From: a virus
Lineage: Duplodnaviria; Heunggongvirae; Uroviricota; Caudoviricetes
IMG/VR virus record: IMGVR_UViG_3300018486_000129
Coordinates: 1 to 5,863 of that record
Length of the DNA stretch: 5,863 bases
Reading direction: 5' to 3' (one strand)
Shown: one piece after another, positions 1-5,863 of the stretch
Layout of the letters: each line of letters starts with the position of its first letter
How positions within the stretch are numbered: the first letter of the stretch is position 1
Position numbers and translations under genes: made by a program
The notes under the pieces: model-generated
Told to the model about the DNA's origin: nothing
Databases searched by the model: none
What the model saw: only the letters and a program-made list of their open reading frames with translations

Positions 1-158
1 ACAATCTCATTCAGGCACTCTTTGGCTGCCTCATCGTGACTTTTTCCGTATGCTTCATGGAGGACTTTCATCCTCATCATTGCTCCGTCACACATAATCG
101 AAAGCGCGTAAAGCACATCACTAATCGCCATTTCTTTTTTGGTGCTTGTCGAAGGCAT
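1..158 (-). CDS. Hypothetical protein, 5' part only (runs off the left edge of the window)
   Basis: Minus-strand frame open from ATG at 158..156 to position 1 (MPSTSTKKEMAISDVLYALSIMCDGAMMRMKVLHEAYGKSHDEAAKECLNEI...). GGAG at 170..167 lies 8 nt upstream of the ATG. Below the ORF-track length cut-off because it is truncated. Confidence 0.3.
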   Translation of the reverse strand, partial: MPSTSTKKEMAISDVLYALSIMCDGAMMRMKVLHEAYGKSHDEAAKECLNEI

Positions 159-183
159 CCCATGTTCTCCTTTGTCTGGATGT

Positions 184-209
184 AAAAAAGCCCCGGCAAT
201 TGCCGAGGC
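184..209 (-). terminator. Rho-independent terminator ending the 89-aa/66-aa operon
   Basis: Minus-strand RNA GCCUCGGC-AAUU-GCCGGGGC followed by UUUUUU (plus-strand A-run 184..189). 8-bp GC-rich stem with one U.G wobble that would be a C.A mismatch on the plus strand. Sits 24 nt downstream of the stop at 233. Confidence 0.55.
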
Positions 210-232
210 TCGTTGTTCGTTATCGTTACGGT

Positions 233-433
233 TTAATGCTCGCGTCGTCCGGCGACAACTTCGGATTTGTATTTCAGGTCGCCCAGCAAGAATTGCAGTT
301 TAAGCATCTTTGCCGCCGTGTAGTTTCCTGATTCCACAACCTCTTTCATGAGGTCATAAACGGCCGCAACATCATCAGCCAGGAACTCTTTGCGTTGCTG
401 CTCAGTCGCACGTTTGAAGGAAATACGCATCAC
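233..433 (-). CDS. Hypothetical small protein (65-66 aa), second gene of a coupled pair
   Basis: ORF-track frame 233..433. AGGAG at 445..441 precedes GTG 433 (7-nt spacer) and ATG 430 (10-nt spacer). The ATG overlaps the upstream TGA stop as TGATG. No family recognised. Confidence 0.5.
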   Translation of the reverse strand: MMRISFKRATEQQRKEFLADDVAAVYDLMKEVVESGNYTAAKMLKLQFLLGDLKYKSEVVAGRREH

Positions 434-699
434 TCATCATCTCCTGCCGCACATACAACCTCACAAAAAACATCAGCGGAATGTTTCTTTTTGAATGAAT
501 GGCGCTCAAAACCGCACTCAATATCAGGCGCAAAAACATCCACCACATACGGTCTTTCAGAATGTTTGTTTTCCCAACGATAAACCGTAGTGACGTTGAA
601 ATGTTTTAACGCTTCACGGAACTCAACGCTGCCCGTCAGGTTTTTTGAGGTCAGGTATTGCAGGAGGTTTTTTACTACTTCACGGTCTTGTACTTTCAT
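430..699 (-). CDS. Hypothetical protein (89 aa), first gene of a coupled pair
   Basis: ORF 430..699 with GGAG about 8 nt upstream of ATG 699. Stop overlaps the start of the 66-aa gene. No family recognised. Confidence 0.5.
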   Translation of the reverse strand: MKVQDREVVKNLLQYLTSKNLTGSVEFREALKHFNVTTVYRWENKHSERPYVVDVFAPDIECGFERHSFKKKHSADVFCEVVCAAGDDE

Positions 700-749
700 C
701 GGGTTATCTCCGGTTTAACCAGGGCGGGTATCGCTCGGTTTCGGGTATA

Positions 750-778
750 ACCATAGGAAATTTTTTCCCACCTGTAAA
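750..778 (-). promoter_or_regulatory. Candidate sigma70 promoter for the 89-aa/66-aa operon
   Basis: Minus strand reads TTTACA (778..773), 17-nt spacer, TATGGT (755..750), about 45 nt upstream of ATG 699, inside an AT-rich intergenic stretch. Hexamer match by eye only. Confidence 0.3.
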
Positions 779-794
779 GCACTTTTTATATAAA

Positions 795-808
795 TATATA
801 ATTATATA
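795..808. repeat. Perfect 14-bp AT-only palindrome TATATAATTATATA
   Basis: Read directly; it is its own reverse complement. Lies just after the methyltransferase stop and 16 bp upstream of the candidate -35. A related 12-bp copy is at 1930..1941. Confidence 0.6.
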
Positions 809-811
809 ATT

Positions 812-1399
812 CTATGCCACTTGCCAGAGAGCATCATGCAACTGGATACCTCCATTGCACTGGTTGCCCCAGCCATGCCAACCATCAGGTAAATCACCGC
901 GAGCAAACAGCTCAATACGAGGAACATCACCTAACAGCCTTACCAGCTTGTCACGAACCACATCAGGCTTCCGAGAATGCTCCAGACGAGGCGATGTAAA
1001 CGACTGAATGATCCCCGCATCAAGGCGGGTCGGCAATTTGCCTTTTACCGCAAACAAGCAATCTTCACTGTTTGCACGAGTCATATGCCCCATCCCCATC
1101 ACCAGCTTATCTGGTTGTCGGCTACCACATTTGTTCCATGTGAAGCCCTTCATGGTCATAAGCCTGAATCCCCATGCTTTCACCACCAGCAACGCTTCTT
1201 CTGGCTGAGTCGGAACCCACCACATGGCCAACAAACACGATTCAGGATTAGCAAGCTGCCAGACAGGAATACGAGCAATATCCTCAGCTTTCATCGTTGG
1301 ATACTTAAAACCAGCTCCACGATTCCCATCCTTACACTTATCTTTGTATTCCCAGGGGGGATCTGCATAAATCAGATTAAACAATGCAATTGCCTCCAT
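812..1399 (-). CDS. DNA N6-adenine methyltransferase, MT-A70-like (orphan, no restriction partner in window)
   Basis: 195-aa ORF with N-terminal ADPPWEY (DPPW catalytic motif of N6-adenine methyltransferases) and overall resemblance to phage Dam/MT-A70-like enzymes. GGAGG about 10 nt upstream of ATG 1399. Confidence 0.8.
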   Translation of the reverse strand: MEAIALFNLIYADPPWEYKDKCKDGNRGAGFKYPTMKAEDIARIPVWQLANPESCLLAMWWVPTQPEEALLVVKAWGFRLMTMKGFTWNKCGSRQPDKLVMGMGHMTRANSEDCLFAVKGKLPTRLDAGIIQSFTSPRLEHSRKPDVVRDKLVRLLGDVPRIELFARGDLPDGWHGWGNQCNGGIQLHDALWQVA

Positions 1400-1642
1400 G
1401 TTAGTTGTGCCTCCGGCGCTTATCTCCGGCAGTCATAACGCTGGCCAGCTCTACAGCAAACACAACGAAAAGGGCACTAACCAGACTGATTAATGCCCTT
1501 GCCTGTTGTGTGCCGGATATCGCCCGACAACGCTGTTTTGGTAACACGGCTACAGTTCCGTGCCGCTCCAGCTTTTACCCCTTTGCGGATAACAGGCCCT
1601 GCCTGTAACTTAGCCCCACGTTCGCCCGAAATGCGCACCAGG

Positions 1643-1697
1643 CACGCATAAAGATGAGCACGAAGAAGTAACTCCACCGAGCTTATCTTTATGTGTG
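1643..1697. repeat. Long inverted repeat (17-bp stem, 21-nt loop) just downstream of the tRNA
   Basis: 1643..1659 pairs with 1681..1697; core cataaagatgagc / gcttatctttatg. Two G.T positions (G.U in plus-sense RNA). No U-run on either side, so not a canonical intrinsic terminator. Confidence 0.5.
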
Positions 1698-1706
1698 AGA
1701 GTGAAT

Positions 1707-1782
1707 TGGTGGCCCCTACCGGATTTGAACCGATGACCGTGCGATTATGAGTCGCCTGCTCTAACCACTGAGCTAAGGGGCC
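1707..1782 (-). tRNA. tRNA with CAU anticodon, most like tRNA-Ile2 (lysidine, AUA-decoding)
   Basis: Minus strand reads GGCCCCTTAGCTCAGTGGTTAGAGCAGGCGACTCATAATCGCACGGTCATCGGTTCAAATCCGGTAGGGGCCACCA. 7-bp acceptor stem, D-arm GCTC/GAGC, anticodon loop CTCATAA, T-arm ATCGG/CCGGT with TTCAAAT loop, encoded CCA. Acceptor stem GGCCCCU and anticodon arm match host ileX-type tRNA as recalled from memory; elongator tRNA-Met is not excluded. Confidence 0.9.
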
Positions 1783-1808
1783 ATATTTGATTTGTTTGTC
1801 TGGTGTGG

Positions 1809-1859
1809 CGCCGCGCACGAAAATCCCAGCCAATAAATTCAGGATTTTTGGGCGCGGCG
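1809..1859. repeat. Long inverted repeat (18-bp stem, 15-nt loop) just upstream of the tRNA
   Basis: 1809..1826 pairs with 1842..1859 (cgccgcgcacgaaaatcc / ggatttttgggcgcggcg), 16 of 18 Watson-Crick plus one G.T. GC-rich base, A/T-rich top. No flanking U-run. Confidence 0.5.
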
Positions 1860-1929
1860 GCATATCAGACAAACATGGTTGATGCGTGCGCCCATGAGAA
1901 AAGCGCATAGAATGTTGTAACTATATATT

Positions 1930-1941
1930 TATATAATTATA
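1930..1941. repeat. 12-bp AT-only palindrome TATATAATTATA, second copy
   Basis: Perfect palindrome in the AT-rich gap between the Rz1 stop (1952) and the tRNA. Confidence 0.5.
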
Positions 1942-1951
1942 GAAATATATA

Positions 1952-2161
1952 TTACTTTCGGCAGTTGATTTCCCATGCCCTGTTATGAGCCAGAATATCT
2001 TTCTTTGTCTGGCGGTCCATAACATCGATGTCGTGATCAGTCAGGTAGATGGGCTTTACCCAATCACAGGCGGTATCAACCACCACCGGGACGCTTCCAC
2101 GACTCCCGCAGCTCGCGATCAACATCGTCATCAGCCATATGGTTAACACTCTGCTGTACAT
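1952..2161 (-). CDS. Rz1-like o-spanin (outer-membrane lipoprotein), overlapping the 3' end of Rz in another frame
   Basis: 69-aa ORF MYSRVLTIWLMTMLIASCGS... with a lipoprotein-type signal peptide and lipobox IASC. Strong RBS AGAGGTGGGG about 5 nt upstream of ATG 2161. Overlaps Rz by 86 nt. Not proline-rich, so the call is tentative. Confidence 0.55.
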   Translation of the reverse strand: MYSRVLTIWLMTMLIASCGSRGSVPVVVDTACDWVKPIYLTDHDIDVMDRQTKKDILAHNRAWEINCRK

Positions 2162-2354
2162 TCCCCACCTCTTTTATCACTTCTATACGCCGCTCCGCAG
2201 TGGCTTTTACGGCGGCTGCATTCTCATTAATGCGCTGCTTTTCAGCTTCATCTTCGGCCTTTTCTCGCCCCTTCATACGACCAAAACCAAACGCGCCAAA
2301 TGCAACCAATATAATTGTGCCAATAAATGACAAAACGGCCTTCAAACCAGTCAT
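2076..2354 (-). CDS. Rz-like i-spanin (N-terminal transmembrane helix plus charged coiled-coil domain)
   Basis: 92-aa ORF with hydrophobic N-terminus LKAVLSFIGTIILVAFGAFGFG followed by a charged, helix-prone region. ATG 2354 overlaps the endolysin stop as ATGA. Sits directly after the endolysin. Confidence 0.6.
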   Translation of the reverse strand: MTGLKAVLSFIGTIILVAFGAFGFGRMKGREKAEDEAEKQRINENAAAVKATAERRIEVIKEVGNVQQSVNHMADDDVDRELRESWKRPGGG

Positions 2355-2893
2355 ACCACCACTCGCTCTTTCATCCAGCCGTAGACAAACGACTCATTAG
2401 CCTCGCGCTTCTCCGCCAACTCCAGATAGCGTTCGCCCTGCGTACAGTTCAGCGACGTCAGCATCACCCGTTCGCCGTCTTTTCCCCGATTCCCAAGATA
2501 AGCACGCAGCGCATTAATGGTACGTGGACCGATTCGTCCGTCTGCATCCAAATCGGGATACAGCTTCCCACGCAGGTTGAACACATTCAGCCAGCGTTGA
2601 AGCATTTTTGACGCCACTGTTGGCCCCATGTTGACGCCCGTGTCGCACAGTTCTGCGGCAATATCCGGCGACAGAGTTGCTATCTGGTCAAAACGTGGGC
2701 CGTACCAGTAATCAGCCTCAAGGATTTCCAGAGCCTGTTCGCGAGTTAAATCGCGCATATCGCCACGGTATCCATGAGCACGGGCAGTGTTCTGAGTAAT
2801 GCCCCACTTTGTTGGGCCTCCCTTGTCGTCAGGGTGATCCACATAGCCGCCCTCTTTTCCAAGAATGCTGTTAAAAATCTCATCTTTGGTCAT
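2351..2893 (-). CDS. Endolysin, GH108-like N-terminal domain with PG_binding_3-like C-terminal domain
   Basis: 180-aa ORF. N-terminus ILGKEGGYVDHPDDKGGPTKWGIT matches the GH108 signature and the C-terminal half resembles the PG_binding_3 peptidoglycan-binding domain. No N-terminal hydrophobic SAR segment. Start overlaps the upstream gene by 14 nt. Confidence 0.85.
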   Translation of the reverse strand: MTKDEIFNSILGKEGGYVDHPDDKGGPTKWGITQNTARAHGYRGDMRDLTREQALEILEADYWYGPRFDQIATLSPDIAAELCDTGVNMGPTVASKMLQRWLNVFNLRGKLYPDLDADGRIGPRTINALRAYLGNRGKDGERVMLTSLNCTQGERYLELAEKREANESFVYGWMKERVVV

Positions 2894-3176
2894 GATTAAA
2901 CCCTAATGCGTCAACTATCCGCGCCAGATTGCCCCTGAAATACAGAACAACGATGCAGATAATCAGATTTCCAATAACCACCAGCCAGTGGGATTCTTGA
3001 TAAAGACCGAACACATAACGGAAGGGAACATTGGCGTATACAATGACGTAGATATAAGCCAGAAAGGAAACAAATGGACGATGCCTGGAGTCTTTCCGTC
3101 GATAAAGCATCAGCGCAATTACTATTACTGTGCAAAGCACCGCATTAATCAGTGCTGACGGGTCACTGCTTACCAT
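2880..3176 (-). CDS. Small three-helix membrane protein, possible second holin or antiholin
   Basis: Three hydrophobic helices in about 98 aa. Start chosen at ATG 3176 (MVSSDPSALI...) because GGAGGGGG lies 5-6 nt upstream; the ORF-track start at 3212 has no such RBS. Confidence 0.55.
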   Translation of the reverse strand: MVSSDPSALINAVLCTVIVIALMLYRRKDSRHRPFVSFLAYIYVIVYANVPFRYVFGLYQESHWLVVIGNLIICIVVLYFRGNLARIVDALGFNHDQR

Positions 3177-3558
3177 TTGAACCCCCTCCACGTAAGCGGG
3201 AAAGCATTCCAAAGATGCTACCGAGATCCTGGCTGTTTACGAACGTGAGGATTTTAATTGTCAATGCAGCCACAATAACCGCACCAAGCGCATCCAGAGG
3301 ACGATCGTTGTAGCTGGTCCATTTGGCAAGAAATGAGCCAACTAACGGCGCTCCAATCACTCCAACAATGAACGATGTAAAGAAATAGCCAATCAGCTTG
3401 AGACGGCTAATATTCACCGCTGTAGCAACATAGAAAACAGCGCCAGCAAATGCCCCGAATACAACGCCGTAATCAATACCAGTTGCAATACCAAAAACGC
3501 TGGCACCCATCAGGCCACCAGCAGCAACGGCCGTACCGGAAATTGGTTCTGCTGACAT
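3163..3558 (-). CDS. Putative holin (131 aa, about four transmembrane segments)
   Basis: Highly hydrophobic Gly/Ala-rich helices with a short charged C-terminal tail. First gene of the lysis cassette. RBS GAGGA 5 nt upstream of ATG 3558. Confidence 0.65.
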   Translation of the reverse strand: MSAEPISGTAVAAGGLMGASVFGIATGIDYGVVFGAFAGAVFYVATAVNISRLKLIGYFFTSFIVGVIGAPLVGSFLAKWTSYNDRPLDALGAVIVAALTIKILTFVNSQDLGSIFGMLSRLRGGGSNGKQ

Positions 3559-3571
3559 TGAAATCCTCGTT

Positions 3572-3604
3572 AAAAAAAAAGCCCCGCCGAAAAAGGCAGG
3601 GCTT
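3572..3604 (-). terminator. Rho-independent terminator directly upstream of the holin RBS (tR'-like)
   Basis: Minus-strand RNA AAGCCCUGCC-UUUUUC-GGCGGGGCUU followed by nine U (plus-strand A-run 3572..3580). Stem has one U.G wobble that would be a C.A mismatch on the plus strand. Confidence 0.65.
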
Positions 3605-3937
3605 CATAAAGCAACAAATTACGCGGTAATCGCTTAACGCAGTTTTACTACGTTAAATGAAACACTACACCCAGTTACCACCTAAAACAAGGCTTCCCCA
3701 TAAAAAAACCTTCATTCTGTGGTTAACTGATCAATAAAAAAACAATACTCAACTTTTTACCAACCGAACATCCCGACCAGGACTTCCATAATATTCGCCG
3801 ATATGCCACTGCTTAAGTTGAGTAATCTTCTCCAACTTAACGCCCATAGAGTCCAGTTTCTGCCATGTTTTCGGTTGTATGTGCTTCATTACCCGCTCTG
3901 AATATCTGAATACTGCTCGTAAGCGCATGGCTTCTCA
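3605..3937 (-). promoter_or_regulatory. Non-coding leader upstream of the lysis cassette; candidate late promoter and short terminated leader RNA
   Basis: About 335 bp with no ORF of 60 aa or more on the minus strand, AT-rich in places, ending in the terminator. No confident -35/-10 pair could be assigned by eye. Confidence 0.35.
3813..3840. repeat. Inverted repeat TTAAGTTG-N12-CAACTTAA in the leader
   Basis: Perfect 8-bp arms at 3813..3820 and 3833..3840 separated by 12 bp. No adjacent U-run. Confidence 0.4.
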
Positions 3938-4129
3938 CTACAGCTTATATAAGTGGTTTTTCCAGCGGTTTTGCGCCGCGCTGCGCTTATCTTTGACTCC
4001 CTCTCTGGCAATTCCAAAAAATGAGAACAACACCACACGACGATTGCTAACTCTCAACCACTGGCTGGGATAGCAAAGCCTGTATACTCGCGAAATAATC
4101 ATCCTGGCTTTACGATTGTTGGTTGCCAT
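3938..4129 (-). CDS. Small basic hypothetical protein (63 aa)
   Basis: Strong RBS AGGAG 6 nt upstream of ATG 4129, which lies 1 nt after the upstream TGA stop. Arg/Lys-rich. No family recognised; a plus-strand ORF overlaps it, so coding status is uncertain. Confidence 0.4.
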   Translation of the reverse strand: MATNNRKARMIISRVYRLCYPSQWLRVSNRRVVLFSFFGIAREGVKDKRSAAQNRWKNHLYKL

Positions 4130-4130
4130 A

Positions 4131-4802
4131 TCACTCTCCTTTTATGCGAATGCCAGCGGCGCGCTCGGCTTCACTTTGTTCCCAAAACCACTTATGAAGC
4201 TCCATGAGCTTTTCGTCAATCGGTGCATATTTGCGATTAAAGTAGGCCTGAGCATCTTTCTCAGATTCGTCCGGCAATTCGCCTGGGCCAAACAGTGTGT
4301 TATAAATCCATGCCAGTCCGCTCTTAGCGTCGCCAGTTGCCTGCCATTCGATAATCGCAGCCTGCATGACAAGAATGTTTTTCCCGATTAATAGGTCCAG
4401 TTCTTTGAACCGGTTGCGGATGTATGCATTCTCGCTTTGTAATTTTGCGTTGCGCTTCTCTGCGGCTTCCAGCTCAACACGCAGCTTCCCTACCGTTAGC
4501 GCAATATCCTCGTTCTCCTGGTCACGGCTTTTGATGTATTGCAGGTTTCTTTCCCGTTCATCCAGCAGTGCCTGCACTACTTCAGGGTTGAAAGCTGCGA
4601 TATAACGAGCGTTGTTCTCTGCGTTTTTCTGTTCGTCGAATCCAGGCCAGTCGACAATATCTCCGTGATGATTATCTCCTGGTGTGTGCACAGCGTACGT
4701 GCCGTGTTTGCCCGGCGAAATAAATGCGACCCATTCGCCCTGTGTTGCCTGTTTTGCTATCTCACGTAGCGCCTGATAGTTAATTGCTGTGCTGTTAGTC
4801 AT
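4131..4802 (-). CDS. Ead/Ea22-like family protein (about 223 aa)
   Basis: Start set at ATG 4802 (MTNSTAINYQALREIAKQATQGEWVAF...), which has GGAGG 6 nt upstream and matches the conserved Ead/Ea22-like N-terminal motif as recalled from memory. The ORF-track start at 4847 lies inside the upstream gene. Central coiled-coil-like region. Confidence 0.6.
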   Translation of the reverse strand: MTNSTAINYQALREIAKQATQGEWVAFISPGKHGTYAVHTPGDNHHGDIVDWPGFDEQKNAENNARYIAAFNPEVVQALLDERERNLQYIKSRDQENEDIALTVGKLRVELEAAEKRNAKLQSENAYIRNRFKELDLLIGKNILVMQAAIIEWQATGDAKSGLAWIYNTLFGPGELPDESEKDAQAYFNRKYAPIDEKLMELHKWFWEQSEAERAAGIRIKGE

Positions 4803-5139
4803 TCCAGGCCTCCAGCTCGTTCTGAATCTCCTCGTCAACCTCGTCATTGGTGGCGTCTTCGTTCAGATGGTCGCGCGCCTCTTTGAGATACTGTTCACGG
4901 CGTTCGTGGTACCAGGCTGAGAACTCCGGCGACCATCCTCGATTAGCCCCCTGAAAATCTACCATCGCATTATCCTCGGCCATACGCTCGACCATGCAAT
5001 CCGCGGTGTTCAGTGCAACCTCACGGATGTACCCCCGCAGGTCGCGCTTACGCCAATACGGGCTATATTTTGAGTCGCAGCGGCCTTTAAATTCGACGGT
5101 CCAGCGACGGATGCAGCGTGCGTTAAGTGATTTGCTCAT
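4795..5139 (-). CDS. Hypothetical protein (114 aa), basic Cys-containing N-terminus and acidic C-terminal tail
   Basis: RBS AGGAAG 7 nt upstream of ATG 5139. Stop overlaps the Ea22-like start by 8 nt. No family recognised. Confidence 0.55.
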   Translation of the reverse strand: MSKSLNARCIRRWTVEFKGRCDSKYSPYWRKRDLRGYIREVALNTADCMVERMAEDNAMVDFQGANRGWSPEFSAWYHERREQYLKEARDHLNEDATNDEVDEEIQNELEAWND

Positions 5140-5141
5140 AG

Positions 5142-5810
5142 TTATGCTTCCTGAATACGCTTAAACTCAATTACCCATACCCACGGGTTAGATAGCCAGT
5201 TCTCTTGCCCGTAAATACCGCGCCAGATATCACCAAAGCCAACGCGATAAACAGCTTCCGGCGGTGTAATCTTGTACGTCGCCGGAGATGCGCCTTCCGC
5301 TTTAGCATCTGCCTCGCTCATGTCATGCAGCCGTTCCACACGCACGTCGGTAATTTCCAACAGAATGCGTGATGCCCATCGCGGCATGTGAATTGATGGA
5401 CGCCACCCACCATCAAACTTTTCATTCACAGTGTGAGGTTTCCAGTCGGCATCATCGGGTATCGACCACAAGCCGTAATCACCAGGCTTTTGCTCACAAC
5501 TGGCCCGATAAATCCTTGCTGCGTTCTTCTCATCGCCACGACAAAGGTTGTCGTTCCAGTCCACACTGCAACCATCCTCATTGCCTAATATCGCCCACGC
5601 CTCGCGGACCCATATGCGATCACCAACGTTACCGAACGGGCATAAACCATGTTCCGGTGCATCCATAACGTGGGTATAGACACCATTGCGTTTCTTTGTC
5701 GGTTTACGGATAACCAGGCAGTTATCGGCCCTGACATTTTTTACAGGTCGGCGAGTCTGCGTTTTCCTTCCTTCGAGGATGGCCCGGACCATCTCATCGT
5801 TAAAAATCAT
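5142..5810 (-). CDS. ASCH-domain (PUA-like fold) protein, about 222 aa
   Basis: Start set at ATG 5810 (MIFNDEMVRAILEGRKTQTRRPV...) because the ORF-track start at 5837 is a GTG whose first codons contain the likely RBS. N-terminal GRKTQTRR...GDRIWVRE and C-terminal VWVIEFKRI resemble the ASCH signature (compare E. coli YqfB, from memory). Confidence 0.65.
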   Translation of the reverse strand: MIFNDEMVRAILEGRKTQTRRPVKNVRADNCLVIRKPTKKRNGVYTHVMDAPEHGLCPFGNVGDRIWVREAWAILGNEDGCSVDWNDNLCRGDEKNAARIYRASCEQKPGDYGLWSIPDDADWKPHTVNEKFDGGWRPSIHMPRWASRILLEITDVRVERLHDMSEADAKAEGASPATYKITPPEAVYRVGFGDIWRGIYGQENWLSNPWVWVIEFKRIQEA

Positions 5811-5863
5811 GCCGCGCTCTTTCACTCTCCCTCCCACGTTTTCAGACTTTCACCACAAAACGG

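Follow-up and report, generated by a model that had tools for sequence, protein, structure and literature searches.

Two conserved stem-loops flanking a tRNA gene in a myovirus-type phage-plasmid family

In a 5,863-nt stretch of a tailed-phage record (IMGVR_UViG_3300018486_000129, positions 1 to 5,863; referred to here as the window), a tRNA gene on the minus strand is bracketed by two long imperfect hairpins, HP-A and HP-B. Comparison of related elements indicates that both are conserved structured RNA elements, as their pairs are kept through compensatory substitutions. We tentatively read them, with a probability of about 0.4, as structured processing or stability boundaries in a late or local transcript. 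As both stems are also kept in relatives without the tRNA, this role would be a general one in boundary formation, stability or processing, and not tRNA release as such.

Structure of HP-A and HP-B

HP-A (positions 1643-1697, minus strand) consists of a 17-bp stem (1643-1659 paired with 1681-1697) and a 21-nt loop. The original prediction had drawn this stem correctly, and it contains 15 Watson-Crick and two G.T pairs (1646.1694 and 1656.1684). HP-B is larger than had been proposed: the 18-bp stem described at 1809..1859 does exist, but it covers only the inner two thirds of an 83-nt hairpin at positions 1793-1875, whose 34-nt arms (1793-1826 and 1842-1875) enclose a 15-nt loop and which folds best from the plus strand. 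The arms form 29 Watson-Crick pairs, three G.T pairs (1803.1865, 1805.1863 and 1819.1849) and two purine-purine mismatches, and HP-B is the longest close inverted repeat of the window. The tRNA gene (1707-1782, minus strand) lies 10 nt from HP-B and 9 nt from HP-A, instead of the 25 and 10 nt given before; in gene sense, HP-A begins 9 nt downstream of the tRNA 3' end. This tRNA has a CAU anticodon and an encoded CCA, and scores 67 bits against the Rfam tRNA model; it is called Met by ARAGORN, whereas RefSeq annotates its identical or near-identical copies as tRNA-Ile.

Folded as RNA, HP-B reaches -52.7 kcal/mol in plus sense (z -9.4), with helices of 15, 8 and 9 bp split by 1x1 mismatches, and -39.5 kcal/mol in minus sense (z -6.3), with helices of 10, 2, 8 and 9 bp split by internal loops. 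The plus strand is also favored when DNA parameters are applied to HP-B of this window. HP-A reaches -24.3 kcal/mol in plus sense (z -7.1) and -21.1 kcal/mol in minus sense (z -5.9). The z-scores were set against 200 shuffles, none of which folded as well (0/200 for HP-A), and both stems are thus real, far beyond chance (z about -6 to -9). Folds of both strands contain them, and HP-A and the HP-B core also form on both strands when embedded in contexts of 150-520 nt, with the outer third of HP-B in long minus-sense contexts as the exception.

It had been noted before that both hairpins pair better in plus sense. This is the case for both in the window; across relatives, it holds for HP-B but not for HP-A, for which the minus sense is better. 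Most E. coli-type copies of HP-A fold slightly better in minus sense (-29.3 versus -27.3 kcal/mol in plus sense), and in the diverged lineage L015 and the Salmonella plasmids, where the HP-A stem encloses an extra domain of about 100 nt, the minus (gene-sense) fold gains 9-15 kcal/mol over the plus fold. That HP-A of the window prefers the plus sense is due to its own variant bases, G1646 and A1680.

Terminator scans and inspection of the flanks detected no U/T run after HP-A or HP-B on either strand. As the original prediction held, they are not ordinary terminators because they lack a U tract. In searches against Rfam 15 (E<=1), the tRNA alone reached the gathering threshold of a family; they returned nothing for HP-A or for its inner domain in relatives, and only chance-level matches to miRNA precursors for HP-B (30.7 bits against a threshold of 70).

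Conservation with and without the tRNA

The window matches circular E. coli plasmids of about 47-50 kb and three Yersinia myophages (vB_YpM_39, 41 and 44) at 95-98%. More distant are L015 (an IMG/VR contig), with a methylase 75% identical and a CAU tRNA 85% identical to those of the window, and a Salmonella lineage of three plasmids without the tRNA (Weltevreden NZ_LN890526, Concord CP044178 and salamae CP053324); the covariation evidence covers three deep lineages only. The homologous intervals in these relatives are 820-1,115 nt long and hold no conserved open reading frame (ORF). Along the plus strand, all lineages share one order: the methylase leader, the terminator hairpin HP-C, a block of about 100 nt, HP-A, a variable middle with or without the tRNA, HP-B, and the AT-rich palindromic element B2.

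The HP-A closing stem is paired in 93% of cells, with five pairs changed on both sides across lineages. HP-B is exactly 83 nt long, with no indels, in all five distinct variants, while its flanks are indel-rich, and its 34-pair structure is paired in 88.8% of cells. Eight HP-B pairs were changed on both sides, a number reached by none of 500 shuffles (slid controls gave 0-1), and one stem position carries three different Watson-Crick pairs. The outer (GTTTGnCTG / CAGnnnAAC) and inner (CGAAAA / GGATTTT) segments keep their sequence, symmetrically, and the 15-bp middle covaries.

The E. coli-type lineage and L015 carry the tRNA, and it is missing from the Salmonella relatives, in which local alignment against shuffles gave no significant tRNA remnant. 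In both tRNA-bearing lineages, HP-A follows the tRNA end at 5-9 nt. The proximity of HP-B to the tRNA in the window arises because the E. coli type lacks 300-670 nt that the relatives carry between them, and the distance from HP-B to B2 is 33-35 nt in every lineage. By this comparison, it is the AT-rich repeat (B2) to which HP-B is anchored, and not the tRNA. The spacer between HP-B and B2 (1876-1906) contains a short GC hairpin at about 1887-1907 and is conserved in length only. Among 14 E. coli-type haplotypes, the tRNA has four variable sites. It is about 94-96% identical to the tRNA of hundreds of P1/D6-type phage-plasmids, with the similarity ending within 5-11 nt of the gene, and the tRNA is all that these phage-plasmids have in common with the window region.

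The persistence of both stems in the three Salmonella plasmids bears directly on two earlier proposals. One took the hairpins for what was left behind when the tRNA was inserted. In a more explicit form, they would be scars or terminal repeats of a mobile element of the miniature inverted-repeat transposable element (MITE), repetitive extragenic palindromic (REP) or attachment-site type. The presence of the tRNA in some lineages and its absence from others would suit this idea, as would the 32-nt inverted repeat formed by B2 with a second AT-rich copy, B1, which together flank the methylase-tRNA segment. However, both hairpins occur, with compensatory changes, in the tRNA-less relatives, and selection on them is purifying as well as compensatory; B1 and B2 are not a pair of element ends but belong to an intergenic repeat dispersed in at least eight copies; and there are no copies of the hairpins outside the plasmid family in 5,426 E. 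coli genomes, nor elsewhere in the plasmid. The idea is already largely refuted and we regard it as extremely improbable. The other proposal, that RNase III or RNase E sites in the hairpins release the tRNA, is compatible with the data yet too narrow, as the hairpins are kept without the tRNA. Because the stems are kept by compensatory changes where there is no tRNA, they are neither insertion scars nor dedicated tRNA-release devices; and because they are single-copy and confined to one plasmid family, they are not REP- or MITE-like.

This confinement was seen in several searches. With the tRNA flanks as BLAST queries, 70 and 69 of the 5,426 complete E. coli genomes were found, each with one copy and only in this plasmid family; the matches amount to 70-71 places in 70 genomes, at one per family plasmid. 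HP-A and HP-B are each single-copy in the 48-kb plasmid. Family carriers, among them the reference strain ATCC 25922, account for about 1.3% of the complete genomes of E. coli. Scans of genome contigs and IMG/VR with the methylase protein returned many methylase homologues, of which only L007-L016 carry the non-coding region, and two DNA-pattern scans of IMG/VR returned only contigs already known. A metagenome scan with the invariant 14-mer GAATGTTGTAACTA was too unspecific, with true relatives accounting for 1/120 among the matches listed. An HP-B covariance model found no further homologues among 48 loci, and when targets of the HP-B loop were sought, the only matches were 11 nt long and about as many as estimated for chance.

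The hairpins had also been considered as protein-binding sites, and one may picture them as double-stranded DNA palindromes to which a dimeric protein binds, as at an operator or a site of partition or recombination, or as extruded cruciforms. The symmetrical conservation of the outer and inner parts of HP-B, its constant 83 nt and its complete invariance in the E. coli lineage would fit such sites, and HP-B adjoins a dispersed AT-rich palindrome that is also found twice upstream of parA. Against this, the 15-bp stem middle covaries, being neither fixed nor freely drifting; the mismatches differ between the strands, an asymmetry that would not be imposed by a duplex site and that points to a single-stranded fold; and HP-A and HP-B are single-copy in the plasmid. 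Usual operators are, moreover, far smaller than 34-bp arms with a 15-bp spacer. Covariation and strand-asymmetric mismatches make plain duplex operators unlikely; the protein-site proposal is weakened accordingly, and we consider palindromic duplex sites or cruciforms decidedly unlikely.

A proposed boundary role in a late transcript

The element that carries the hairpins is a myovirus-type phage-plasmid. The complete map of the ATCC 25922 plasmid, a member of this family of about 48 kb, shows repA, parA, a RelE/ParE-type toxin gene, an XRE repressor and an early operon, followed by holins, a GH108 endolysin, the tRNA, an MT-A70 methylase, ParB-like genes, the terminase, head genes and a contractile tail. 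Beginning with the early operon, all genes point in one direction, which corresponds to the minus strand of the window, and the family order is early genes, lysis, tRNA, methylase, terminase, head and tail; repA is about 18 kb from HP-B. The family plasmid records covered here are circular in their annotation, with NZ_CP044178.1 (listed as linear) as the sole exception. The family falls outside the ten curated phage-plasmid types, and we found no description in the literature of the family or of HP-A/HP-B.

Both hairpins lie in a non-coding interval of about 550 nt (1951..1400) between the lysis genes (holins, endolysin and spanins) and the MT-A70 methylase. The upper limit rests on an ORF of 69 aa at 1952-2161 (minus strand) that is unannotated, carries a lipoprotein signal (MLIASC), overlaps the end of a 92-aa ORF at 2076-2354 and matches Rz-like spanin regions of lambdoid phages. 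From these sequence features, it is likely an o-spanin overlooked in the RefSeq annotation, so the lysis cassette ends at 1952 and the non-coding interval runs 1951..1400. Within this interval, there is no conserved ORF, and substitutions are without 3-nt periodicity.

The interval also holds HP-C (1458-1512, core 1500..1470, minus strand), a long terminator hairpin with a U run on the minus strand, covariation, and a minus-sense fold that is better in all lineages; it is the true terminator of the interval. Between HP-C and HP-A is a highly conserved non-coding block of about 100 nt (1513-1612, minus strand), with four short hairpins and no codon periodicity. In both the block and HP-C, G.U pairs and covariation occur in minus sense, as does the U run of HP-C, which fits an RNA made in the gene direction. 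In relatives, HP-A with its inner domain likewise has its G.U pairs in this sense, and for all three elements the minus-sense fold is the better one.

In the model we prefer, HP-A and HP-B would be independent, maintained stem-loops in a non-coding "RNA island" (1951..1400, minus strand) of a long same-direction transcription unit. The stems would fold on transcription as rigid helices that, having no U-tracts, would not cause termination, and the short AU-rich single-stranded linkers, AAUCAAAUAU 5' of the tRNA and AUUCACUCU 3' of it, would stay open. RNase P together with RNase E or exonucleases could then excise the tRNA at these linkers. After cutting, HP-B may cap the 3' end of the lysis mRNA, and HP-A could do likewise for the 5' end of the conserved block, which extends downstream as far as HP-C; with its 34 bp, HP-B would be long enough to serve as an RNase III substrate. 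Observed are the structures together with their conservation and covariation, the order and strands of the genes, and the terminator; co-transcription, the nucleases and the protection of ends are steps that we infer. This processing-boundary role fits HP-A, the conserved block and HP-C well. Should it be correct, the window would present a routine case of a temperate phage with a tRNA among structured RNA boundaries, and the value of the finding would lie mainly in annotation: an apparently "empty" region of about 550-1,100 nt would be a mosaic of conserved non-coding modules.

The same transcriptional setting allows another explanation, namely, that the hairpins are pause or termination signals without a U-tract, or insulators, acting on non-antiterminated polymerase and limiting, in the prophage, how often transcription of the lysis genes runs on into the tRNA and methylase. 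A strong terminator 15 nt upstream of the holin (3605..3578) suggests, by analogy, that the late genes need antitermination and thus form an antitermination-dependent unit; the island itself ends in a terminator, and short terminator-like hairpins also stand before other copies of the AT-rich repeat. However, no U/T run follows either stem on either strand, and the gene-sense copy of HP-B is the weaker version of this hairpin. We consider this explanation very unlikely.

The terminator before the holin (minus strand) is followed by a run of at least eight U. The 156-nt stretch at 3573-3728 (minus strand), also upstream of the holin, gives a GcvB-like Rfam hit below threshold (36.3 versus 42 bits). 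Together, the terminator and this stretch resemble in layout the lambda pR'-6S RNA-tR' unit.

Strand asymmetry of HP-B

Several observations weigh against the boundary model, at least as a purely gene-sense role for HP-B. First, the transition-type mismatches of HP-B, which lie at different positions in three lineages, are G.U in six to seven cases on the plus strand and in none on the minus strand (two-sided binomial p about 0.02-0.03, three deep lineages); the gene-sense RNA therefore has A-C mismatches at these positions and no G.U pair. Second, predicted folds of long contexts (150-520 nt) retain the outer third of HP-B in plus sense but not in minus sense. Third, HP-B has no variable site among the 14 E. 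coli-type haplotypes, as compared with 53/801 in the surrounding region; this total invariance, including that of the loop, along with the fixed 83 nt, suggests a partner specific for sequence or geometry over a generic stabilizer. Fourth, the plus-strand background GC skew is negative except around HP-B, so that the HP-B bias runs counter to it, and HP-C, 300 nt away, has the opposite asymmetry; for these two reasons, a regional mutation bias is unlikely. Finally, a sigma-70 consensus scan of 1300-2400 on both strands gave no promoter. The antisense-strand bias of HP-B is an odd feature. Sliding-window comparisons of plus and minus folding energies were not used as evidence here, as they largely track base composition.

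The main alternative would be that HP-B acts from the plus (antisense) strand, as a cis-antisense RNA or as a single-stranded DNA (ssDNA) hairpin of the priming, initiation or recombination type, together with B2, while HP-A stays a gene-sense RNA; the gene-sense copy of HP-B would then be tolerated, or even weakened. Besides the 6-7 to 0 distribution of wobbles, every other mismatch opposes two purines when read on the plus strand. RNA parameters favor the plus fold in each of the five variants, and DNA parameters do so in the window. Stem position 17 is C-G in Concord, U.G in Weltevreden and U-A in salamae, a series in which compensation passes through a plus-sense wobble. The formation of the outer third of HP-B only in plus sense in long-context folds, the reverse asymmetry of HP-C combined with the negative background skew, the fixed 33-35 nt from HP-B to B2, and the better match of B2 to other repeat copies in plus orientation all point the same way. 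On the other side, no plus-strand promoter, terminator or gene was found near HP-B; the sample is small, with three deep lineages; neither a plus-sense transcript nor an ssDNA stage is known for the element, and repA is about 18 kb off; and the plasmid annotation lists no HUH, integron-type or protelomerase enzyme. We therefore hold this explanation to be possible but doubtful.

A more specific version, which we judge to be rather unlikely, makes HP-B a strand-specific antisense element (an antisense RNA, or an ssDNA hairpin bound by a phage-plasmid or host protein) that forms a fixed unit with the AT-rich palindrome and is not a signal in the late-transcript RNA. If this were true, HP-B and the palindrome, which also occurs at the parA region and at several phage promoter regions, would be an undescribed control point joining the plasmid and phage lifestyles. 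More generally, should the asymmetry of HP-B reflect real biology, this perfectly conserved hairpin of 83 nt would be under selection on the antisense strand and linked to a repeat that the partition region also contains, and it would represent a new element in regulation or replication.

Other elements of the non-coding interval

B2 (1907-1951, no strand assigned) is an AT-rich palindromic element with the core TATAATTATA and is one copy of a dispersed intergenic repeat; it has one variable site in 45. The second copy in the window, B1, occupies 786-817. Together with 1905-1936, at B2, it makes up an inverted repeat of 32 nt (88%), and the two copies flank the methylase-tRNA-hairpin segment. 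The element, often with ...TTATAGATTTATATAA..., has at least eight intergenic copies in the ATCC 25922 plasmid (L123 16209, 21357, 22064, 22136, 25896, 27116, 31388 and 32520). Two of them are situated upstream of parA, another lies in the gap between this gene and its partner, and short terminator-like hairpins stand in front of several. Three copies are followed by the same leader of about 85 nt (GTGCTTTACAGGTGGGA...CCCGAAACCGAGCGATACCCGCCCTGGTTAAACCGGAGA...ATG), each before a different gene; leader sites are at 700-785 of the window (minus strand) and at L123 16246-16325, 25941-26012 and 32570-32642, and a consensus scan places TTTACA-17-TATGGT inside this leader. Promoter candidates picked by eye around B2 are ambiguous (TATAAT on both strands of the TATAATTATA core, and GTTACA). 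The AT-rich element is possibly a promoter/operator or a dispersed centromere-like site.

The conserved block at 1513-1612 is more conserved than the adjacent methylase gene, and after it follow the HP-C terminator and a leader directly before the MT-A70 start. This conserved leader (1400-1457, minus strand) contains a CCGG-loop-CCGG hairpin with GAUAAGCG in the gene-sense RNA. Rfam gave only sub-threshold rydB-like matches at 1402-1457, in three lineages, and no match for the conserved block. The region 1400-1612 (minus strand) is a candidate small RNA or transcription attenuator. The motif GGCGCTTAT(C), at 1410-1435 of the window, is located in hairpin loops (GAUAAGCG when read in gene sense); a P1-like Enterobacter plasmid has three further copies in its non-coding region (L254 2300-2320, 2710-2730 and 3108-3130), near its CAU tRNA. 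Elsewhere in the window, another clean intrinsic terminator is present at 188-211 on the minus strand, which is the gene strand (GAGCCTCGGCAATTGCCGGGGCTT followed by TTTTT).

Pieces of the Salmonella-type island recur, with 75-89% identity, in plasmids of Serratia (46.8 kb), Enterobacter/Leclercia (88-93 kb) and Klebsiella (44 kb), and shared pieces are also present in a 301-kb Klebsiella plasmid; their contexts differ between plasmids. Coordinates of the shared module are L122 2690-3195, L253 2501-2613 and L254 2501-2656. Where the annotation was inspected, these plasmids are phage-plasmid-like, and in the one Enterobacter plasmid examined, which is P1-like, the shared piece adjoins a CAU tRNA. 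Such sequence sharing suggests that island regions are mosaics of exchangeable non-coding RNA modules.

Comparison with known systems

HP-A and HP-B share with intrinsic terminators a GC-rich intergenic stem-loop, and their neighbor HP-C is a terminator of this type; they differ by lacking the U/T tract. HP-B also resembles ssDNA hairpin sites (integron attC, primosome assembly or ssi sites, and HUH hairpins) in that structure is conserved over sequence and mismatches are biased to one strand. An integron attC site was rejected for HP-B: the RYYYAAC ... GTTRRRY arrangement is absent, and its ends, TGTTTGTC ... GACAAACA, have the opposite order (GTTTG ... CAAAC). A 184-aa protein of the recombinase family, encoded beside the tail-fibre genes, is the sole recombinase in the plasmid annotation. 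A hairpin-telomere site of the N15 telRL type was likewise rejected, as the 15-nt center of HP-B is non-palindromic and no protelomerase is annotated in the one complete map examined.

Another comparison is with RNase III stem-loops, such as T7 R1.1-type sites, lambda sib, and the 16S and 23S stems around spacer tRNAs. Like HP-A and HP-B, they are long imperfect stems without U-tracts that lie between cistrons or beside a tRNA. RNase III needs roughly two helical turns, which the 34-bp HP-B would exceed in total length; a largely unbroken RNA duplex of at least 20 bp or so is expected of such a site, and the longest uninterrupted helices of HP-B are 15 bp in plus sense and 10 bp in minus sense. 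The differences are that: the gene-sense HP-B is broken by three A-C and two pyrimidine-pyrimidine mismatches; HP-A has only 17 bp; the hairpins here persist without the tRNA; and there is no relation by sequence or in Rfam. A second likeness is to mRNA-stabilizing stem-loops, such as the 3' protectors of the REP and bacterial interspersed mosaic element type and the 5' stem-loop of ompA, in which a stable hairpin closes the upstream message at its 3' end or the downstream RNA at its 5' end; in the stem middle, structure is again conserved over sequence. REP elements, however, are short, dispersed and multi-copy, whereas HP-A and HP-B are single-copy, family-specific and much longer.

With respect to location, the comparison is with phage tRNA regions. 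Pieces of the island of the relatives recur beside a CAU tRNA in P1-like plasmids, and no homology to the HP-A or HP-B sequences was found in the tRNA regions of the T4 or P1 type. The T4 cluster, with its species 1 and 2 RNAs, and the P1-type phage-plasmids resemble the window in overall arrangement: in each case, the tRNA lies within a non-coding, hairpin-rich stretch of a transcription unit.

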